Of a DNA stretch of 56,958 bases, positions 9,903-56,924 are shown one piece after another. The notes beneath the pieces are model-generated. The model was not told where the DNA came from and did not search any database. It was given only the letters and a program-made list of their open reading frames with translations. The translations under genes were made by a program, and so were the position numbers. The stretch is from the NCBI GenBank assembly GCA_009777915.1, contig WRKV01000001.1, positions 1-56,958 on the forward strand, given 5' to 3'. Source of the stretch: Bacteroidales bacterium. GTDB lineage: Bacteria > Bacteroidota > Bacteroidia > Bacteroidales > P3. Each line of letters begins with the position of its first letter. Position 1 is the stretch's first letter.

Positions 9903-11878
9903 TTTTTGGATTTTTGTTGAGATGCACGGTCTTGCATCTGTGCGATGATTTGATTTATTCTTAACAATGCTCCAACGCTCCAAGCCTGTGATACCGCACC
10001 TTTCGGACGATGTGGCGGGTCTCCGTCGTAAACTTCAGCGACAGATCCGATGCCATATTCGGACATGGTTTGTTCGAATGCATGATAGATATTTTTGATA
10101 AAATCTAATTTGGATTCGCCATACGCTTTCATGTATCCTTCCGCAAAAAACTGCAACTGCCAAACCCAAACGGTTCCTTGATGATACGCCATGTCGCGTT
10201 GAAAAGCGTTGCCTTCGTAAACAAATTTATAGTTCGGATCATTGGGCGAAAGTGTTCGAAGCCCGTGTGGTGTGAGCAATTCTTGACGAACTTTTTCCAA
10301 AACCAACTGTGAAACTCGTACACTGATAGGCGAATAAGGTAGTCCGGTTGCAATCACTTGATTCGGACGAACCGTAAAATCTTTATGTCCGTCATTCACA
10401 CAATCGGCTAAATATCCTTTTTCTTTATCCCAAAACATTTCTTTGAAAACGTTTGGAAATTCTTGCATCAGCGGTTCCCATTCGTTCACAAATTTAGTAT
10501 CTTTTGCAAGTTTTGCAGTTTCGATGGCAAACATCACAGCATTATACCAAAGTGCGTTAACCTCAACAACAAAGCCTGTTCGCGGTGTAACGACAATCCC
10601 TTCGGCAATAGCGTTCATCCAAGTCAACGGTTGTCCTGCGGCTCCACCATAAATCAATCCGTTTGGAATCATGTGAACCTGATGATGCGATCCGTATTTA
10701 TACATATTTAATATAGACACCATCGTTTCGCCATATATTTTCCAAATCTTTTTTTGTGTTTTGGTGTGAGTGGCATATTGTTGCAATGCCCAGAAAAACC
10801 AAAGTTGTGTGTCGATTCCGCTATAAGTTTTTTGTCTTGCAGACGGATCGTCCGGAAACCAACCGTTGTGTAATTTGGAAATCATGTTGTCCAAAACTTC
10901 TTTGCATAATTCTTCGTCACCGGAGGTCAACGTTAAACCCGGCAAAGCAATAAATGTATCTCGACTTCGACATCCAAACCAAGGAAAACCTGCGATTACA
11001 TTTAGACCGTTTTCATTTTTTACAAAAAATTGTCGTGCTGCATTTTTCAAACAACCTTCGAAACAGTCTCTCGGAATTCTGTTTTTGGCTTCATCGGCAA
11101 ACATTTTTTTCAATGTTGTTTCGGGTTTTTCGATTTCTTCCAATCCAACCGAAAAATAAATGCTTTCACCTTTTTTGATTTCGATTTCGAATGTTCCGGG
11201 AACATATAAATCTTCCAAACCTTCGTAGCCTCTGTCGAGTTCTTTTTGATACTCTATATTATGGTGCCAATTCGGATCGTGTTTGTATTCGGCTTTTTTG
11301 GAAAGTTGCATATACAAGTGCGGATATGCATCGTACATTCGCGTGCGAATTCCATTTTTAATTGTTTCGAAAGATTTATTGACGTTATCATTTGCTTTAC
11401 TCAATAAATGTATATTTCGAAAAGCTAAAAAAGGTTTGACAATTAATTTTGTTTTCGAGTGTGCATCTTCCAAAGTGTATTTTATGATCACACAATCTTT
11501 GTCGGTTGCATAAAGAGATTCTTTTGAAAAAAGAACGCCGCCAACATTGTATGTTCTTTTTGGAAGAGGAGTGAGAACATATTCGCGAAGATATTTATGT
11601 CCTTTCGGAGAAAATTTTCCGCCTTCGAATTGATGCAAACCTAAATTAAATTGTTCGCCATGTTGTTCAATTGATTCATCAACGGAAGACAACAAAACAT
11701 GTTTTTCATCATCAATATTCGGAACCGGACAAACCAGCAAACCGTGATATTTTCTGGTGTTACAGTGAATCAATGACGTACACGAATGCGAGCCGCTACG
11801 ATTCACACGCAACAATTCTTTGTTGAGAGAGTACTCTAAATTTACTAATTGATGTCTATCGAAATTAATGTAACTCAT
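9899..11878 (-). CDS. glycogen debranching enzyme (GDE N-terminal plus amylo-alpha-1,6-glucosidase domains)
   Basis: 659 aa. RKYHGLL, QGTVWVWQ and AWSVGALLR type motifs of the archaeal/bacterial GDE family. Confidence 0.82.
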   Translation of the reverse strand: MSYINFDRHQLVNLEYSLNKELLRVNRSGSHSCTSLIHCNTRKYHGLLVCPVPNIDDEKHVLLSSVDESIEQHGEQFNLGLHQFEGGKFSPKGHKYLREYVLTPLPKRTYNVGGVLFSKESLYATDKDCVIIKYTLEDAHSKTKLIVKPFLAFRNIHLLSKANDNVNKSFETIKNGIRTRMYDAYPHLYMQLSKKAEYKHDPNWHHNIEYQKELDRGYEGLEDLYVPGTFEIEIKKGESIYFSVGLEEIEKPETTLKKMFADEAKNRIPRDCFEGCLKNAARQFFVKNENGLNVIAGFPWFGCRSRDTFIALPGLTLTSGDEELCKEVLDNMISKLHNGWFPDDPSARQKTYSGIDTQLWFFWALQQYATHTKTQKKIWKIYGETMVSILNMYKYGSHHQVHMIPNGLIYGGAAGQPLTWMNAIAEGIVVTPRTGFVVEVNALWYNAVMFAIETAKLAKDTKFVNEWEPLMQEFPNVFKEMFWDKEKGYLADCVNDGHKDFTVRPNQVIATGLPYSPISVRVSQLVLEKVRQELLTPHGLRTLSPNDPNYKFVYEGNAFQRDMAYHQGTVWVWQLQFFAEGYMKAYGESKLDFIKNIYHAFEQTMSEYGIGSVAEVYDGDPPHRPKGAVSQAWSVGALLRINQIIAQMQDRASQQKSKK

Positions 11879-12704: not shown

Positions 12705-15700
12705 TTATTGTTCTAATTTTTCTAAAATAAGTTGCAGTTGTTTTTCAAGTTCGTTAATACGATTTTGTTGTCTACGCAATTCGTCGGAATTGTAATCGTT
12801 GATAAAATTAATTTGTCGTTCGAGATTTTGAATTCGCATACGTTGCTGATCGATTTCTGTTTGTTGGTCTTGATTGATTTTCCAAAGCACAGGAATAAAT
12901 CCGGTATAGTTGATACCCAATCCTTCCATAGGTCCGATTTCATAAACCAAATGCGGAAAATACGGTATCACATCTTGTGCCATGAATCCCCATTGAAAAC
13001 TATTGGTTTCGTCGTCTTCCCACACATACGAATGCGGACGAACTTTGTATAAATAATCTTCCATTCCGGATGGCAAAGGCTTGATATTGCGTTTGAATTT
13101 TTTGTCGGACGTGAGAATCATTCCACCTCGAGCAAAGATATAGCCGGTAGTGTTGGAGTGCGTTGGACTCTGTATCCAGCCATTAGGAGCTGATCCTGAT
13201 CCCCAAGAATTAGTTGTTCCATTTCCCATAACATAGATGTTTCCACCTCTGTGGTTGCTATTGCCAACCACCAATATCGCAGCCGCCGAATCAGTAATGT
13301 ATGAATTAGGAAAGCCTTGTGGGCGATTGTTAGTTGCAGTTCCTACGTAATAATCAAGTTTATTTCCTGCGGAGTTAAGTTGTAATAACCCCGGTTGATT
13401 GGGACCTATATTGGTGGCACCCAAAATAGCACCCCGAGCGAAAATAAAACTACCACTCCGAAGTCCGGCAGCTGTTGCATCGCTTGTTTCAACAAACTCG
13501 GTAGATGATGCTTGACCGTCAGAGTTAAGAACCGGCACGGAGTCGGCACGAACAAACTCTACCCCGCCATGCTGCAAACTGCGTCTTGCCCCAATAAAAA
13601 GATTGGAAGCAATATCCATATAAATCAAGTTAAAAGAAGGTCTATTAGTAGGCGGCACACCGACAGGTGGGGATGTGGGAGGAGTGATGATAAGAGCCGG
13701 ATAAGCTGAGGTCCAACTGTCCCCACGGGGCGTGAATGGAGAAATAAGCATATTTGGTGTTCCGATAGTAATAATACCTCCGGAAAAACGAGTAGATGAA
13801 CCGGGAAGCCCATATCCGGGCACCCATTGGGTACCATTCCTCTCGATATTGTTTCCGATGCTGATGTGAGGTCTCAATTGCCCTGTGCCATCTACACGAA
13901 CAGAATGGCTAATGTTCTGTCCTATAGCAATGGTATTGCCTATATTGGTTTCGATATTGTTACCAATGTTTACAGATCTATGGGGTCCTTCTCCGTACAT
14001 CGGAGTCTTAAAAAGAGAGATGTCATTTCCAATGGCGATCGTATGAGAATTTCGAAACGTATTGGGACTTCCTCCATATCTTCCGAAATTGTTTCCGATA
14101 AAAATACTGTTTTGTACGGAGTTAGTGAGAGCATGTGTGGCTTCATCACCTGCAAAATCAATATCGTGTCCGATGACGATATTATTGGTACTATAATCTG
14201 CTCCATAGTCGTAACTTTTATTACGGCGTCCGATAAAAATAGAACTTTTACTTGCATCAAGGTCGTTACCAATGGCGATGGCATCATCGTCGTATGAAGT
14301 GTTGTTACTTCCGACAAGGATATTGTCTAACGACTCTAATCCGATAGTATTGTTTTTTCCGACCATAATACTCATTCGATTGTTGTATATGTGAGGATCC
14401 CCGCCGGTTAGAGTATTCTCTTCTCCCAAAATCAAAACATCAGATGCTCTCCAAACTGTATTTTTTGTTCCAAAAACAAAAACAAATTCTTCACTGTCTT
14501 CAATAATGTTATCATGTCCGGCAACGATAGAAAAAGCATCTCGATAATCGGTAAGCGTAAACTCATTTGCACCTCCTACAATGCTGACAGCACCTGCGTT
14601 GTAGATTACGTTTTCTTCTCCTACGACAAAAGAGTTGTCTGCGGAAAGAATGTCGTTATTAATTCCTATACTGAACAAATTATCTCCGTCTACTCTGCTA
14701 TCTTTTCCGATAGCAAAATTACCGGGTTCGGAGACGTAGTTGTCAATATAAAGATTTCGACCGAGTCCGAAACTTCCCTCACCTTTTGCAATAACATTGG
14801 TTCCCATTCCAATAGTATTTGCACCGATATTACTGCTGTTCCATGCATCGTTGAATAAGGGAGATGATGCTTCGGCATTATCTGAACGACCTGCACGAAA
14901 TGCTTGTTCATTATTTATCCAATAGATACCCTTACTTTCTGTTGCAGGAACTGTCGGATCACCGCCAATAATCACATCTCCGGTATTGCGGTTTCTTAGG
15001 TTTTCTCCGGTTCTAAGCCAATTTGTATCGGCATCGCCGGAACCACCACCACCACTGCCACCATCGACCCAAATCAGCGAATCGCCGGTTGCGTTGAGAG
15101 CCAGATATTTTCCCGGATCACCTGCTTCGTTTGGAAAAATATAATTGTTGATTCGTAACGTTTTGTTGTGTCCGATAACGATATTCGAATCGGCATTTTG
15201 CGACATGGACGAACTCACTAATGCACCCGACACTCCGGCATCATCGCTGTAAAAAGGAATAACATGATCGTCCAAATCGTAGACAATGCTGGTAGTTCCA
15301 CCACTTCCATGAGCATAAAGAGCGTAAGGAACACTGAGCAATTCCGTTACTCCCAAATTGGTGTATCCGGTGTTGTCAATATCAATTTCCAACTGTACAA
15401 AATAAGAACCTGCACCCCAATCAATCTGATCAAATCGTCGCGACGAAAGTCGATTTCCTCGACCGATGTTGAAATTAAGCATTCCAAGATTGTTACTTCG
15501 AAGAGAAGTCCACTCTTCTCTGTAAGTTTCCAGATAGCCGCCATGGTCGTCGAGGAGAACACTAATTCTTACTCGAACATTTTTATCTGCCACGACTGCA
15601 CCGTCAATATCTCTAACTACGGCTTGATATTTGATTGCTTGAGGAGGTTGTGCAAAGACAACCGAAGTCATCAAACAAATTGCGGAGAAATAGAAAATTT

Positions 15701-32339: not shown

Positions 32340-32344
32340 CTTTG

Positions 32345-32415
32345 CAGGGACAGAGGGACTCGAACCCCCGTCTACGGTTTTGGAGACCGCCATTCTACCA
32401 CTGAACTATGTCCCT
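32345..32415 (-). tRNA. tRNA-Trp (CCA)
   Basis: Cloverleaf on the minus strand: agggaca.../...tgtccct, anticodon loop ctCCAaa, T-loop ggttcgagtcc. Confidence 0.9.
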
Positions 32416-32422
32416 TTATGGA

Positions 32423-32450
32423 TAGGGGCGATGCATGCACCGCCCCTACA
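32423..32450. repeat. GC-rich palindromic element, copy a (TAGGGGCGATGCATGCACCGCCCCTACA)
   Basis: One of four related copies (see 34016, 53524 and 56793). Lies between tuf and tRNA-Trp. Confidence 0.8.
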
Positions 32451-32473: not shown

Positions 32474-33661
32474 TTAATCCAAAATTTCAGTTACTTGACC
32501 TGCTCCTACGGTACGTCCACCTTCGCGGATAGCGAATTTAAGACCTTTTGCCATAGCGATTTCTGCAATCAAATTAACTTCGATAGTCAAGTTATCTCCG
32601 GGCATAACCATTTCCACGCCTGCAGGAAGAGAAATCTCTCCGGTTACGTCAGTTGTGCGGAAATAGAACTGTGGACGATACTTGTTGTGGAACGGCGTGT
32701 GACGTCCACCTTCGTTTTTACTCAAGATATAAACCTCAGCTTTGAAATGTTTGTGCGGTTTAACCGAACCCGGTTTGGCGATAACCATACCACGACGAAT
32801 TTCGTCTTTGTCGATACCACGCAACAACAAACCTGCGTTGTCACCGGCTTCACCACGGTCAAGAATTTTGCGGAACATTTCAACACCGGTTACAACCGAT
32901 TTGAGTTTTTCTGCACCCATACCAATGATATCAACAGGATCGCCCGAGTTGATAACTCCGGTTTCGATACGACCTGTAGCCACAGTACCACGACCTGTAA
33001 TCGAGAATACGTCTTCGATCGGCATCAAGAAATCTTTGTCAACGGCACGTTGTGGAAGTTCAATCCATGAGTCAACCGCTTCCATCAATTCCATGATTTT
33101 GTCTGACCATTGTGGTTCGAGGTTTAATCCACCCAATGCAGAACCGCGGATAACCGGTGTGTTGTCACCGTCGAATCCTTTTGCAGACAAAGCGTCGCGG
33201 ATTTCCATTTCAACGAGGTCTAACAACTCAGGGTCGTCAACCAAGTCAACTTTGTTCATAAACACAACCATACGAGGTACACCCACTTGTTGAGCCAAAA
33301 GGATGTGCTCGCGAGTTTGAGGCATCGGACCGTCGGTAGCAGCAACTACGAGGATTGCTCCGTCCATTTGTGCAGCACCGGTAATCATGTTTTTAATGTA
33401 GTCGGCGTGTCCCGGACAGTCTACGTGTGCGTAGTGACGAGTTTGTGTTTCATACTCAATGTGAGCTGTGTTAATGGTAATACCACGTTCTTTTTCTTCA
33501 GGTGCGTTGTCGATAGAGTCAAATGATTTTTTCTCTGACAATCCTTTTTCCGCCAATACTCCGGTAATAGCGGCTGTTAAGGTGGTTTTACCGTGGTCAA
33601 CGTGACCAATAGTTCCAATGTTTACGTGTGGTTTATCACGTTTAAAAGTTTCTTTTGCCAT
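32474..33661 (-). CDS. tuf: elongation factor Tu
   Basis: 395 aa. [18 protein letters not shown] and NKVD motifs. Near-universal EF-Tu sequence. Confidence 0.99.
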
Positions 33662-33999: not shown

Positions 34000-34015
34000 A
34001 ACGGTTTTTTTTTGC

Positions 34016-34049
34016 AAGGGCGAGGCGTGCCTTGCCCCTACATTTATCT
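34016..34049. repeat. GC-rich palindromic element, copy b (AAGGGCGAGGCGTGCCTTGCCCCTACA)
   Basis: Sits between tRNA-Thr(TGT) and tRNA-Tyr, inside the tRNA-tuf transcription unit. Confidence 0.75.
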
Positions 34050-52732: not shown

Positions 52733-52771
52733 AGTCTGAAAAACTTTCCTTGCTATTTTCAAAATTTTTTG

Positions 52772-52797: not shown

Positions 52798-54831
52798 ATG
52801 TCCGACTTTCAAAATCAAATTCGTCAAGGTATTCCCGACAGTTTGCCGTCTCCGCAAACGTATGATACAAGCGTGAATCACGCACCCAAACGTAAAGATA
52901 TTTTAACTGCCGATGAAAAAAAATTAGCACTTCGCAATGCGTTACGCTATTTCGATCCGAAACATCATGCCGAACTTTTGCCTGAATTCAAGCAAGAGTT
53001 GGAAACATACGGCAGAATTTATATGTATCGTTTTCGTCCGACTTACAAAATGTATGCTCGTCCGATTGATGAATACCCTGCGAAATCCAAGCAGGCTGCG
53101 GCAATCATGCTGATGATCCAAAATAATTTGGATTATGCTGTGGCACAACATCCGCACGAACTCATCACGTATGGCGGGAATGGTGCGGTTTTCCAAAATT
53201 GGGCACAGTATTTGCTCACGATGAAATACCTTTCGGAAATGTCCGATGAGCAAACGTTGGTCATGTATAGCGGGCATCCGATGGGCTTGTTCCCGTCTCA
53301 CAAAGACGCACCACGCGTAGTGGTTACGAACGGTATGATGATTCCGAATTACTCCAAACCCGACGATTGGGAACGTTTCAACGCACTCGGCGTAACGCAA
53401 TACGGACAAATGACGGCGGGTTCATACATGTACATCGGACCACAGGGAATCGTGCATGGGACAACGATTACGGTGATGAATGCGATGCGAAAACTACAGC
53501 AAATGACTGCGACAAGTGGCAACGTAAGGGCGAGGCATGCCTCGCCCCTACAACAAACCCCATTATTCGTTACATCGGGATTGGGTGGTATGTCCGGTGC
53601 ACAACCTAAGGCGGGAAACATTGCAGGTTGTGTTTCGATTACGGCAGAAATTAATCCGAAGGCCACGCACACGCGTCATTCGCAAGGTTGGGTAGATGAG
53701 GTTCATGACGATTTGGACAAACTTTTTTCACGTGTGAAAGAGGTGCAAAATCAAAACGGTGTTCGCTCGTTTGCGTATCAAGGTAATGTCGTGGATTTAT
53801 GGGAATATTGTGCGAAAAATAACATTAAAGTGGATATGGGTTCCGACCAAACTTCGCTGCACAATCCTTGGGCGGGCGGTTATTATCCGATTGGATTAAC
53901 GTTTGAGGAATCCAATAAAATGATGGCAGAACAACCGGAATTGTTCAAGCAAAAAGTTCAGGAAACCTTGAAAAGACACGTGAATGCCGTAAACACTTGC
54001 GTAAAAAACGGCACCTATTTTTTCGATTATGGTAATGCATTTTTGTTGGAATCAAGTCGTGCGGGTGCAGATATTTTGAACGAAAAAGGGAATTTCAAAT
54101 ATCCGTCTTATGTGCAAGATATTATGGGACCGATGTGTTTCGACTACGGGTTCGGACCGTTCCGTTGGGTGTGCACTTCGGGCAAACCGGAGGATTTAGA
54201 TATTTCGGATCAAATTGCGATGGACGTTTTGGCAGAAATGTCCGAAAAATCGCCTGTGGAAATCCAACAACAAATGCAAGATAATATCCGTTGGATTTGC
54301 GGAGCGAAAGAAAATAAATTGGTTGTCGGTTCTCAAGCCCGCATTCTGTATGCCGATGCGGAGGGTCGCATGAAAATTGCGGAAGCGTTTAATCAGGCGA
54401 TTGAAGTCGGAGCAATTTCCGCACCGATTGTTTTAGGTCGCGATCATCACGATGTTTCGGGAACGGATTCGCCGTTCAGAGAGACTTCGAATATCTACGA
54501 TGGGTCGAGCTTTACAGCGGATATGGCGATTCACAATGTGATTGGCGATTCGTTTCGAGGTGCGACTTGGGTGAGCATTCACAACGGCGGTGGCGTAGGT
54601 TGGGGCGAGGTCATCAACGGCGGGTTTGGTATGGTTTTAGATGGTTCTGCTGATGCCGAACGCAGACTAAAATCCATGTTGTTTTGGGACGTGAACAACG
54701 GTATTTCGAGACGTTCGTGGGCACGCAATCCCGGTGCGATTTTTGCCATCAAACGAGCGATGAACATAGAACCCAATTTGAAAATTACCTTGCCGAATAT
54801 AGTAGATGATGCACTTTTGGAGAGGTTCTGA
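52798..54831 (+). CDS. hutU: urocanate hydratase
   Basis: 677 aa. TYGGNGAVFQNW, GQMTAGSYMYIGPQGIVHGT, SGLGGMSGAQPKA and LGRDHHDVSGTDSP motifs. Confidence 0.93.
   Translation: MSDFQNQIRQGIPDSLPSPQTYDTSVNHAPKRKDILTADEKKLALRNALRYFDPKHHAELLPEFKQELETYGRIYMYRFRPTYKMYARPIDEYPAKSKQAAAIMLMIQNNLDYAVAQHPHELITYGGNGAVFQNWAQYLLTMKYLSEMSDEQTLVMYSGHPMGLFPSHKDAPRVVVTNGMMIPNYSKPDDWERFNALGVTQYGQMTAGSYMYIGPQGIVHGTTITVMNAMRKLQQMTATSGNVRARHASPLQQTPLFVTSGLGGMSGAQPKAGNIAGCVSITAEINPKATHTRHSQGWVDEVHDDLDKLFSRVKEVQNQNGVRSFAYQGNVVDLWEYCAKNNIKVDMGSDQTSLHNPWAGGYYPIGLTFEESNKMMAEQPELFKQKVQETLKRHVNAVNTCVKNGTYFFDYGNAFLLESSRAGADILNEKGNFKYPSYVQDIMGPMCFDYGFGPFRWVCTSGKPEDLDISDQIAMDVLAEMSEKSPVEIQQQMQDNIRWICGAKENKLVVGSQARILYADAEGRMKIAEAFNQAIEVGAISAPIVLGRDHHDVSGTDSPFRETSNIYDGSSFTADMAIHNVIGDSFRGATWVSIHNGGGVGWGEVINGGFGMVLDGSADAERRLKSMLFWDVNNGISRRSWARNPGAIFAIKRAMNIEPNLKITLPNIVDDALLERF
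53524..53551. repeat. GC-rich palindromic element, copy c (GTAAGGGCGAGGCATGCCTCGCCCCTAC) inside hutU, in frame
   Basis: 13 of 14 arm positions pair. Translated as ..NVRARHASPLQ.. just before the SGLGGMSGAQ NAD-binding loop. Confidence 0.85.
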
Positions 54832-56764: not shown

Positions 56765-56845
56765 TGGATAGTGATTAGTGAATAGTGATTAGTAGGGGCG
56801 AGGCATGCGTCGCCCGATAGTGATTAGTGATTAGTGAATAGCGAA
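56762..56845 (+). repeat. heptamer arrays TAGTGGA/TAGTGAT/TAGTGAA starting at the stop codon, interrupted by GC-rich palindromic element copy d (56793-56819)
   Basis: Read directly as TAGTGGA TAGTGAT TAGTGAA TAGTGAT TAG-GGGCGAGGCATGCGTCGCCCG-A TAGTGAT TAGTGAT TAGTGAA TAGCGAA. Confidence 0.85.
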
Positions 56846-56846
56846 A

Positions 56847-56924
56847 CGTCATTGCGAGGGCAACGCCCGAAGCAATCCACAATAGCAAATAGATTGCTTC
56901 GCCACTGCGTGGCTCGCAATGACG
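56847..56924. repeat. nested hairpin (outer arms cgtcattgcgag/ctcgcaatgacg, inner arms cgaagcaatc/gattgcttcg)
   Basis: Both arm pairs are exact reverse complements. Contains the complement of GGCGAAGC at 56896-56903. Confidence 0.75.

Follow-up and report, generated by a model that had tools for sequence, protein, structure and literature searches.

An in-frame palindrome in the urocanate hydratase gene of a termite-gut Bacteroidales: a probable double-foot REP at a site of repeat turnover

The urocanate hydratase gene (hutU) of a termite-gut Bacteroidales bacterium carries, in frame, a 28-nt GC-rich palindrome, found in a 56,958-nt stretch (the window) of contig WRKV01000001.1 from assembly GCA_009777915.1. 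Here we report that this palindrome is very probably a copy of a double-foot repetitive extragenic palindromic (REP) element of the subclass 2.4 type, which has been tolerated in frame within an enzyme and whose site was later re-used by other repeats. The same palindrome recurs throughout the source genome (G000; contigs of this genome are given C-numbers below), its arms co-vary, a gene resembling its expected transposase is flanked by copies of it and interrupted by in-frame REPs, and the corresponding loop of hutU is occupied by different repeats in close relatives. The element class, in-frame copies included, has already been published (PMC3733652, PMC6006769), and turnover at a single genic site is the less expected addition.

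The palindrome and the loop that holds it

The features of the hutU region that concern us are the following.
52798-54831, plus strand: hutU (urocanate hydratase), the sole long open reading frame (ORF) of the region, 677 aa from its ATG, with a TTG at 52750 as a further open start
53497-53562, plus strand: lineage-specific expanded loop Q234-P255, 22 residues against 8 in the ancestral form, hypervariable among relatives
53524-53551, no strand assigned: 28-nt palindrome (GTAA...CTAC), the probable double-foot REP, sequence GTAAGGGCGAGGCATGCCTCGCCCCTAC

The two arms of GTAAGGGCGAGGCATGCCTCGCCCCTAC pair at 13 of 14 positions, the lone mismatch being A4 opposite C25, and the copy departs at one position from the genome consensus GTAGGGGCGAGGCATGCCTCGCCCCTAC. 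It has a GTAA foot at its 5' end and a CTAC foot at its 3' end. Both the arm pairing and the in-frame position had been put forward in an initial annotation made from the sequence of the window, and both held when checked against the sequence and the ORF: the palindrome encodes V243-L251 (VRARHASPL) and the first base of Q252, in the context ..SGNVRARHASPLQQ.., and keeps the frame open. As DNA the hairpin folds at -10.1 kcal/mol (z = -3.8), and the surrounding 81 nt of mRNA (53500-53580) fold at -25.9 kcal/mol (z = -2.75). The 28-nt element has no coding capacity of its own. An Rfam search of 53300-53800 gave no match, nor did a literature search for the exact 28-mer sequence or its peptides.

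Alignment to orthologs identifies the segment as a true insertion, as the initial annotation had suspected. Against PDB 6uek, the best solved relative of HutU (E=1e-251, residues 7-676), the alignment leaves a gap of 13 residues that coincides with RARHASPLQQTPL, and against the Pseudomonas enzyme the gap is of 9 residues. About 110 of 120 homologs (78-91% identity) have the short loop RKxxxDGLAGK-LF(I/V)T(A/S)GLGGMSGAQ, these short-loop orthologs being 79-89% identical. The REP-coded part accounts for nine residues inside a 14-residue lineage-specific expansion. An AlphaFold (AF2) model built with a 43-homolog alignment, with a mean predicted local distance difference test score (pLDDT) of 58.9, has a helix at 220-238, a loop at 238-250 (pLDDT <50) and a strand at 256-260 that leads into the glycine-rich NAD-binding motif; single-sequence structure prediction reached a pLDDT of 33. 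The AF2 model would place the expansion in the linker that joins a helix of the core domain to the first beta-strand ahead of the GLGGMSGAQ motif, in agreement with the earlier placement of the palindrome just upstream of the NAD-binding loop.

The repeat family and its candidate transposase

A search of the window with a 22-nt core, allowing at most three mismatches, returned four copies of the family, compared with 0 in 100 shuffles. The three outside hutU are all intergenic, as had been noted, at coordinates shifted by a few bases from those first given.
32422-32449, no strand assigned: family copy ATAGGGGCGATGCATGCACCGCCCCTAC, flanked by a tuf-like ORF (stop at 32474) and by tRNA-Trp (32344-32415), both on the minus strand
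34014-34041, no strand assigned: family copy GCAAGGGCGAGGCGTGCCTTGCCCCTAC, in the spacer of tRNA-Thr(tgt) and tRNA-Tyr
56792-56819, no strand assigned: one-footed copy GTAGGGGCGAGGCATGCGTCGCCCGATA, in a TAGTGAT/TAGTGAA heptamer array just past the stop of a 536-aa surface-protein gene

The initial description of a four-member family is correct for the window, but genome-wide the family is far larger. The core search gave 77 hits in G000 (2.33 Mb in 189 contigs, 42% G+C, 94% complete), where 132 28-mers have the form GTA(G)...(C)TAC; a shuffled genome contained neither. Stem variants keep their pairing (GAGGCATGCCTC, GACGCATGCGTC, GATGCATGCATC, GGGGCATGCCCC and CACAAAATTTTGTG, together with a GAGACG... 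series). Among 47 distinct copies, eight of the 12 stem pairs vary on both sides, and 81 compensatory cells were counted against 20 in shuffles (0/500); these copies had been preselected for at least 10/12 pairs, so that the percentage paired is circular and it is the diversity of paired variants that constitutes the evidence. G stands at position 4 (GTAG) in 68 of 85 full copies, the first three bases being fixed by preselection of the GTA...TAC ends. A pyrimidine is preferred before GTAG and a purine after CTAC, both in G000 and in other phyla. High copy number, the GTAG tag and the compensatory stem variants all support the original suggestion of a REP-like mobile element.

The hutU copy, the only genic one of the four in the window, is no lone exception in the genome: at least 11 other genes of G000 contain in-frame copies. 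Hosts confirmed by Pfam are a ygiQ-type radical SAM gene, yggS, a BlaR1/TonB-like gene, fabD, thiamine pyrophosphokinase, pheT and uvrA; further hosts, named from their translations alone, are cusA/czcA, two AraC-type regulators and a repeat-rich surface-type ORF (C82). With hutU counted, GTA is read as Val (V-[GE]-x6-L-[QHR]) in 12 of 14 in-gene copies and an RGEACLAPT-type frame is used by the other two; the third frame contains TAG. The fabD gene (C68, ~10700-11700) holds two long composite in-frame inserts of ~65 and ~40 residues, made up of several repeat types that include one 28-mer in the RRDAMHCVST frame and CGGTACACGGT-type repeats, and Pfam matches its malonyl-CoA-ACP transacylase in three separate stretches.

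Double-foot REPs, whose 5' foot is GT[AG]G and whose 3' foot is C[TC]AC, are associated with TnpA_REP proteins of subclass 2.4, themselves marked by the motifs NH[IFV]H, WQ and YIxNNP; they are abundant in Cyanobacteria and Bacteroidetes, with scattered occurrences in other groups, and are unique in lying in frame inside their own transposase gene (Quentin, Siguier, Chandler, Fichant 2018, BMC Genomics 19:475, PMC6006769). The G000 28-mer resembles them in being a GC-rich hairpin with feet of this kind and in its occurrence across Bacteroidetes, Cyanobacteria and scattered phyla. The initial annotation had raised the prospect of a cognate Y1/RAYT-like gene (RAYT, REP-associated tyrosine transposase), and one is present in G000, flanked by the same 28-mers. 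It is listed here with another Y1 gene that came into consideration.
C3:14129-14842, minus strand: RAYT-like Y1/HUH gene of G000, 238 aa, with a split NCBIfam RAYT match at 14156-14776
C73:5074-5580, strand not stated: IS200-like Y1 gene of G000, with DHIH and YVEEQEKHH, between rnfB and rnfC

RAYT is the best NCBIfam family of the C3 protein (E=2e-12), and its motifs PNHVHG, ELWQRN and YITNNP fit those of subclass 2.4. Between HuH and Y it carries an 80-aa insert made of in-frame GTAG hairpins, which encode the peptides VVGAGLAPA (twice) and GRPQGSPL. Double-foot 28-mers lie at C3:15017-15044 and 15065-15092, ~175-250 nt upstream of the gene, and a half copy lies downstream. The C3 gene thus shares with subclass 2.4 its motifs, its flanking REPs and its in-frame REPs between HuH and Y. 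Homologs of the C3 core, at 46-51% identity, occur in four of five chromosomes from other phyla (Chloroflexota and Gammaproteobacteria among them), and these too are interrupted and flanked by exact 28-mers (loci L182-L191). Within the order, C3 homologs are found in all six relatives that have the 28-mer, namely the five genus genomes and G014.

A search with PF01797 had returned only the IS200-like gene in G000 and nothing convincing in the five other-phylum chromosomes, which hold 27-198 copies. The conclusion that no Y1 transposase accompanies the palindrome proved to be a false negative once the NCBIfam RAYT model and the C3 protein core were used. RAYT genes of subclass 2.4 escape Pfam PF01797 (Y1_Tnp) because they are split by in-frame REPs, and the lesson for annotation is that a standard Pfam Y1_Tnp search overlooks REP-split transposase genes.

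The IS200-like gene on C73 is preceded by two GCATCC(C/T)GTAGGGATGC hairpins with GTAG in the loop. Homologs of this gene are present in 25 of the 41 genomes of the order, G000 among them, with no relation to which of them have the 28-mer. The C73 gene was rejected as the mobiliser on account of its subclass 1.2-like motifs, its different flanking hairpins, the failure to find it in G002 and its many carriers that are free of the 28-mer. The palindrome is likewise no autonomous IS200/IS605 element, as its 28 nt carry no tnpA between subterminal hairpins. A XerC/D-like 11+6+11 site, a CRISPR repeat, an integron attC and a protelomerase site were also discarded, the copies being dispersed single hairpins with co-varying arms and a RAYT association.

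At up to three mismatches, each of the five genus genomes holds 13-44 copies of the 28-mer, one other genus of the family holds a single copy, and a search of 16 further families of the order found none. The exact 28-mer GTAGGGGCGAGGCATGCCTCGCCCCTAC is present in at least 118 genome-contig stretches from more than 15 phyla, with G+C contents of 37-73%. Among the matches listed, the hosts include Chloroflexota, Cyanobacteria, Deinococcales, Proteobacteria, Gemmatimonadota, Armatimonadota and Tectomicrobia. Because an identical 28-mer is found across phyla, its distribution implies that it would have spread horizontally together with its transposase. In the two Dehalococcoidia chromosomes with listed copies (27 in one and 54 in the other), the variants GAGG/CCTC and GACG/CGTC are seen again.

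The element may also be compared with the GTAG-tagged REP superfamily, members of which were found inside known genes (uvrA and tRNA-synthetase genes among them), where they add 7-30 residues in peptides that often start with VG (Di Nocera, De Gregorio, Rocco 2013, BMC Genomics 14:522, PMC3733652). The likeness lies in short (20-40 bp), GC-rich, GTAG-tagged palindromes with compensatory stem variants, dispersed high copy number and intragenic copies, with peptides starting VG in both. That study describes the tag at one end only, whereas the G000 element is tagged at both; it does not report GTAG repeats from Bacteroidetes, and hutU is not among its listed targets (PMC3733652). In-frame tolerated copies that add surface peptide segments also recall the Rickettsia palindromic elements (RPE). 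Ogata et al. in 2000 reportedly described these as selfish repeats lying in frame in many unrelated functional genes; RPE-1 measures ~100-150 bp, and RPEs are not known outside Rickettsia, nor is any transposase known for them. The G000 element is 28 nt long, GTAG-tagged, hosted by Bacteroidales and without sequence relation to RPEs, and we rejected membership in that group since size, tag and host differ. RPE-4 and RPE-6 have been classed as CGTC-tagged repeats and RPE-1 as a longer palindromic insertion (PMC3733652).

Two of the intergenic settings in the window deserve separate mention. The copies at 32422-32449 and 34014-34041 sit in spacers of a tRNA-Thr/Gly/Tyr/Thr - tuf - tRNA-Trp cluster; judged by position they are probably transcribed, as part of a unit among the most strongly expressed in the cell, and a strong hairpin there could affect processing. 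Reading the sequence at 56792-56819, excision of the 28 nt restores the heptamer register. Copies beside heptamer arrays, found on many contigs of G000, carry a single GTAG foot (…CGCCCA/AGTGAAT…; for example C19:26198, C27:21831 and C31:1491), which suggests insertion into, or co-mobility with, the arrays.

Turnover of repeats at the hutU site

The DNA of the hutU loop was compared among nine metagenomic relatives (P handles) and four genomes of the same genus (G handles), with the following occupants.
Query, P0002 and P0006: the same 28-mer in the same frame
G003: GTGGAGACGCACGGCCGTGCGTCTCTAC
P0007: GTAGAGCACAATTGTGCGTCTCTAC
P0001: GTAGGGGCGGGTTTAATACCCGCCCTCAC
P0009: a truncated copy, in the other frame
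G002: a REP doublet
G001: a GCTGGCGCGGACGTC...GACGTCCGCGCCAGC inverted repeat
G004 (L195) and P0003 (L007): a GTCATTGCGAG...CTCGCAATGAC element
P0004: AAC GTA ACC only
P0005 and P0010: the ancestral short loop

All four other genus genomes have their inserts at the same hutU codon position, and on this comparison of aligned DNA the loop is a recurrent landing site for repeat elements. Between G000 and G003 the 28-nt core differs at 16/28 positions and the flanks at 24/120 (Fisher p=2e-4), and between G000 and P0002 the core differs at 1/28 and the left flank at 10/60. The hutU gene tree is discordant with the state of the loop: P0005, whose loop is short, has P0001 as its sister, and P0010, with the same short state, falls in a group with P0006 and P0008. 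Because the gene tree does not follow the loop states, repeated gains, swaps or recombination at the loop would be needed. A single ancient insertion followed by point mutation was rejected, as the core differs by 57% and the flanks by 20% in the G000/G003 pair and short-loop alleles nest among insert-bearing ones.

Similar turnover is seen at the orthologous ygiQ, yggS, uvrA, cusA and thiamine pyrophosphokinase sites and downstream of rpsI. At the yggS site, three relatives (L139, L140 and L141) hold in-frame REP doublets consisting of a GTAG-hairpin, a 25-35-nt spacer and a hairpin-CTAC, and G000 (C20:4417) has one double-foot 28-mer in place of the doublet. This doublet/single pair matches the origin of double-foot REPs proposed in PMC6006769, by central deletion of an inverted dimer.

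Repeats of another kind take part as well, and one of them lies within the window.
56847-56924, no strand assigned: a different inverted-repeat element, CGTCATTGCGAGG...CTCGCAATGACG, of the family seen in the P0003/G004 hutU loop and in G001/G004 uvrA
Members of this second family are ~75-110 nt long with ends CGTCATTGCGAG...CTCGCAATGACG (uvrA loci L145 in G001 and L144 in G004), and they are read in frame as ..HCE..EAI...DCFA..ARNDD-like peptides at sites that hold 28-mers in other species.

The empty cusA site of G003 shows GTAC and the hutU site of P0004 shows GTAAC. A fixed insertion of 24 nt (or 28+2 nt) into GTAC/TA, which would guarantee the frame, was considered and set aside as unproven; net lengths vary and no consistent duplication is seen.

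Partial precedents for replacement at one site are found in two earlier reports. Different REPs were found at about one recB site in two Xanthomonas species (PMC3733652), and under the name "orthoswitch" different REP classes were described at orthologous positions, with new variants partly replacing old ones (Nunvar et al. 2013, BMC Genomics 14:385, PMC3686654). The hutU loop is like the latter in having different REP classes at an orthologous position of relatives; the orthoswitch was seen for REPs that flank RAYT genes in pseudomonads and stenotrophomonads, and not for in-frame copies in enzymes. In the same way PMC6006769 stresses insertions into transposase genes, whereas here a metabolic enzyme is the host and its site is re-occupied across a genus.

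Interpretation, rival explanations and significance

We propose that double-foot REPs of this family would move as single-stranded hairpins, cleaved and rejoined at their feet by a transposase, for which the C3 protein is the candidate. Copies that land in genes would survive if the frame is kept, if the TAG of GTAG falls out of frame and if the peptide lies in a tolerant loop. In hutU the copy adds VRARHASPL, presumably a neutral peptide, to an enzyme that would still be made and used. A site once colonised would then be re-used, in relatives, by other REP subfamilies, REP doublets or unrelated inverted repeats, and in the nearest genome (G003) the 28-nt core alone would have been exchanged between conserved flanks.

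More tentatively, and with distinctly less confidence than in the REP identity itself, double-foot REPs might act as exchangeable cassettes, the enzyme excising a resident 28-nt hairpin and ligating in one of equal length. Such an exchange would be possible because both feet carry the guide sequence of the transposase. The G000/G003 hutU pair is as this idea predicts, with shared flanks, an equal length of 28 nt and unrelated cores, and the ygiQ, uvrA, cusA and thiamine pyrophosphokinase sites likewise fit. If true, a colonised genic site would become a permanent, frame-preserving hypervariable peptide loop, rewritten between species as the enzyme stays fixed.

Several observations weigh against the double-foot REP interpretation. 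The C3 protein scores below curated profile cut-offs (with NCBIfam 47 bits, rising to 54.7 when the insert is removed, for a cut-off of 80; with Pfam 21.2 for a cut-off of 23), and a search among solved structures gave it no sequence match. No C3 homolog was found in one chromosome that holds 82 copies of the 28-mer, and C3 homologs are also present in 17 of 35 relatives without this 28-mer. The non-REP inverted-repeat elements at shared sites are left unexplained by a mechanism that relies on RAYT only. The comparisons define neither an empty site with clean borders nor a duplicated target, the net length differences being +21, +21, +24, +27 and +30 nt. On the side of the host enzyme, the AF2 model is of mediocre quality, and that full-length HutU is expressed is something we infer from selection only.

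The best of the rival explanations, which we nevertheless regard as unlikely, is that the hairpin is selected for a host function, either as RNA (slowing of ribosomes at a domain boundary, or mRNA stability) or as DNA (binding of nucleoid proteins or topoisomerase). Palindromes are near-perfect at orthologous sites despite flanking synonymous divergence of ~0.8-1.8, the hutU copy lies exactly at a domain junction in the predicted structure, the mRNA around it folds stably (the -25.9 kcal/mol given above), and the copies in the tRNA-tuf spacers are, by their position, probably transcribed. Recent re-insertion of master copies would explain perfect palindromes equally well, however, and the close relatives P0005 and P0010 and ~110 other orthologs do without any insert. 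The genes that carry copies are unrelated in function, and the occupant of the site varies in sequence, length and family, which is better fitted by the turnover of selfish DNA.

It could also be supposed that hutU is an incipient pseudogene and that the insert marks relaxed constraint, given that the gene is unlinked to other hut genes in the window and that the genome is small and repeat-ridden. The gene itself makes this very improbable. Its dN/dS is 0.035-0.078 at dS 0.8-1.8 against nine relatives, most of them also insert-bearing; there are no stops or frameshifts. HutU is a long-type urocanase with a full-length urocanase match and an intact glycine-rich NAD-binding motif; it keeps every column that is invariant across 43 homologs, GLGGMSGAQPKA is intact immediately past the insert, and the three urocanase Pfam domains are present in 120 of its homologs. 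Because hutH (C135) and the adjacent hutI and ftcD (C86) occur on other contigs of G000, all intact, hutU is unlinked to its pathway genes but not orphaned; its earlier description as an orphan holds for the window, where no hut partners are linked, and not for the genome. A low dN/dS, the mark of purifying selection, retained invariant residues and the presence of the pathway genes together make hutU look functional.

We give least credence of all to an artefact of assembly or binning, in which repeats would have caused a chimeric join in a fragmented, repeat-rich metagenome-assembled genome of 189 contigs, many of which end in copies, since the frame is open through a conserved 677-aa protein, three independent assemblies from other samples (JGI, NCBI metagenome-assembled genome, ENA) share the element, frame and loop, and inserts stand at the same codon position in all four other genus genomes.

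With the hutU palindrome as a double-foot REP, the hosts in which selfish REP hairpins are translated come to include a metabolic enzyme and a genus of termite-gut Bacteroidales. The loop it occupies is a natural experiment, in which one conserved enzyme loop has received at least five repeat types across close species, and it marks a place where the urocanase fold accommodates 9-36 additional residues, a property of use in protein engineering. At yggS, the doublet and the single copy offer naturally occurring before and after states for the central deletion from which double-foot REPs are proposed to have arisen, and the filled, swapped and short alleles of hutU could serve to test how RAYT-type enzymes choose and re-use their targets.

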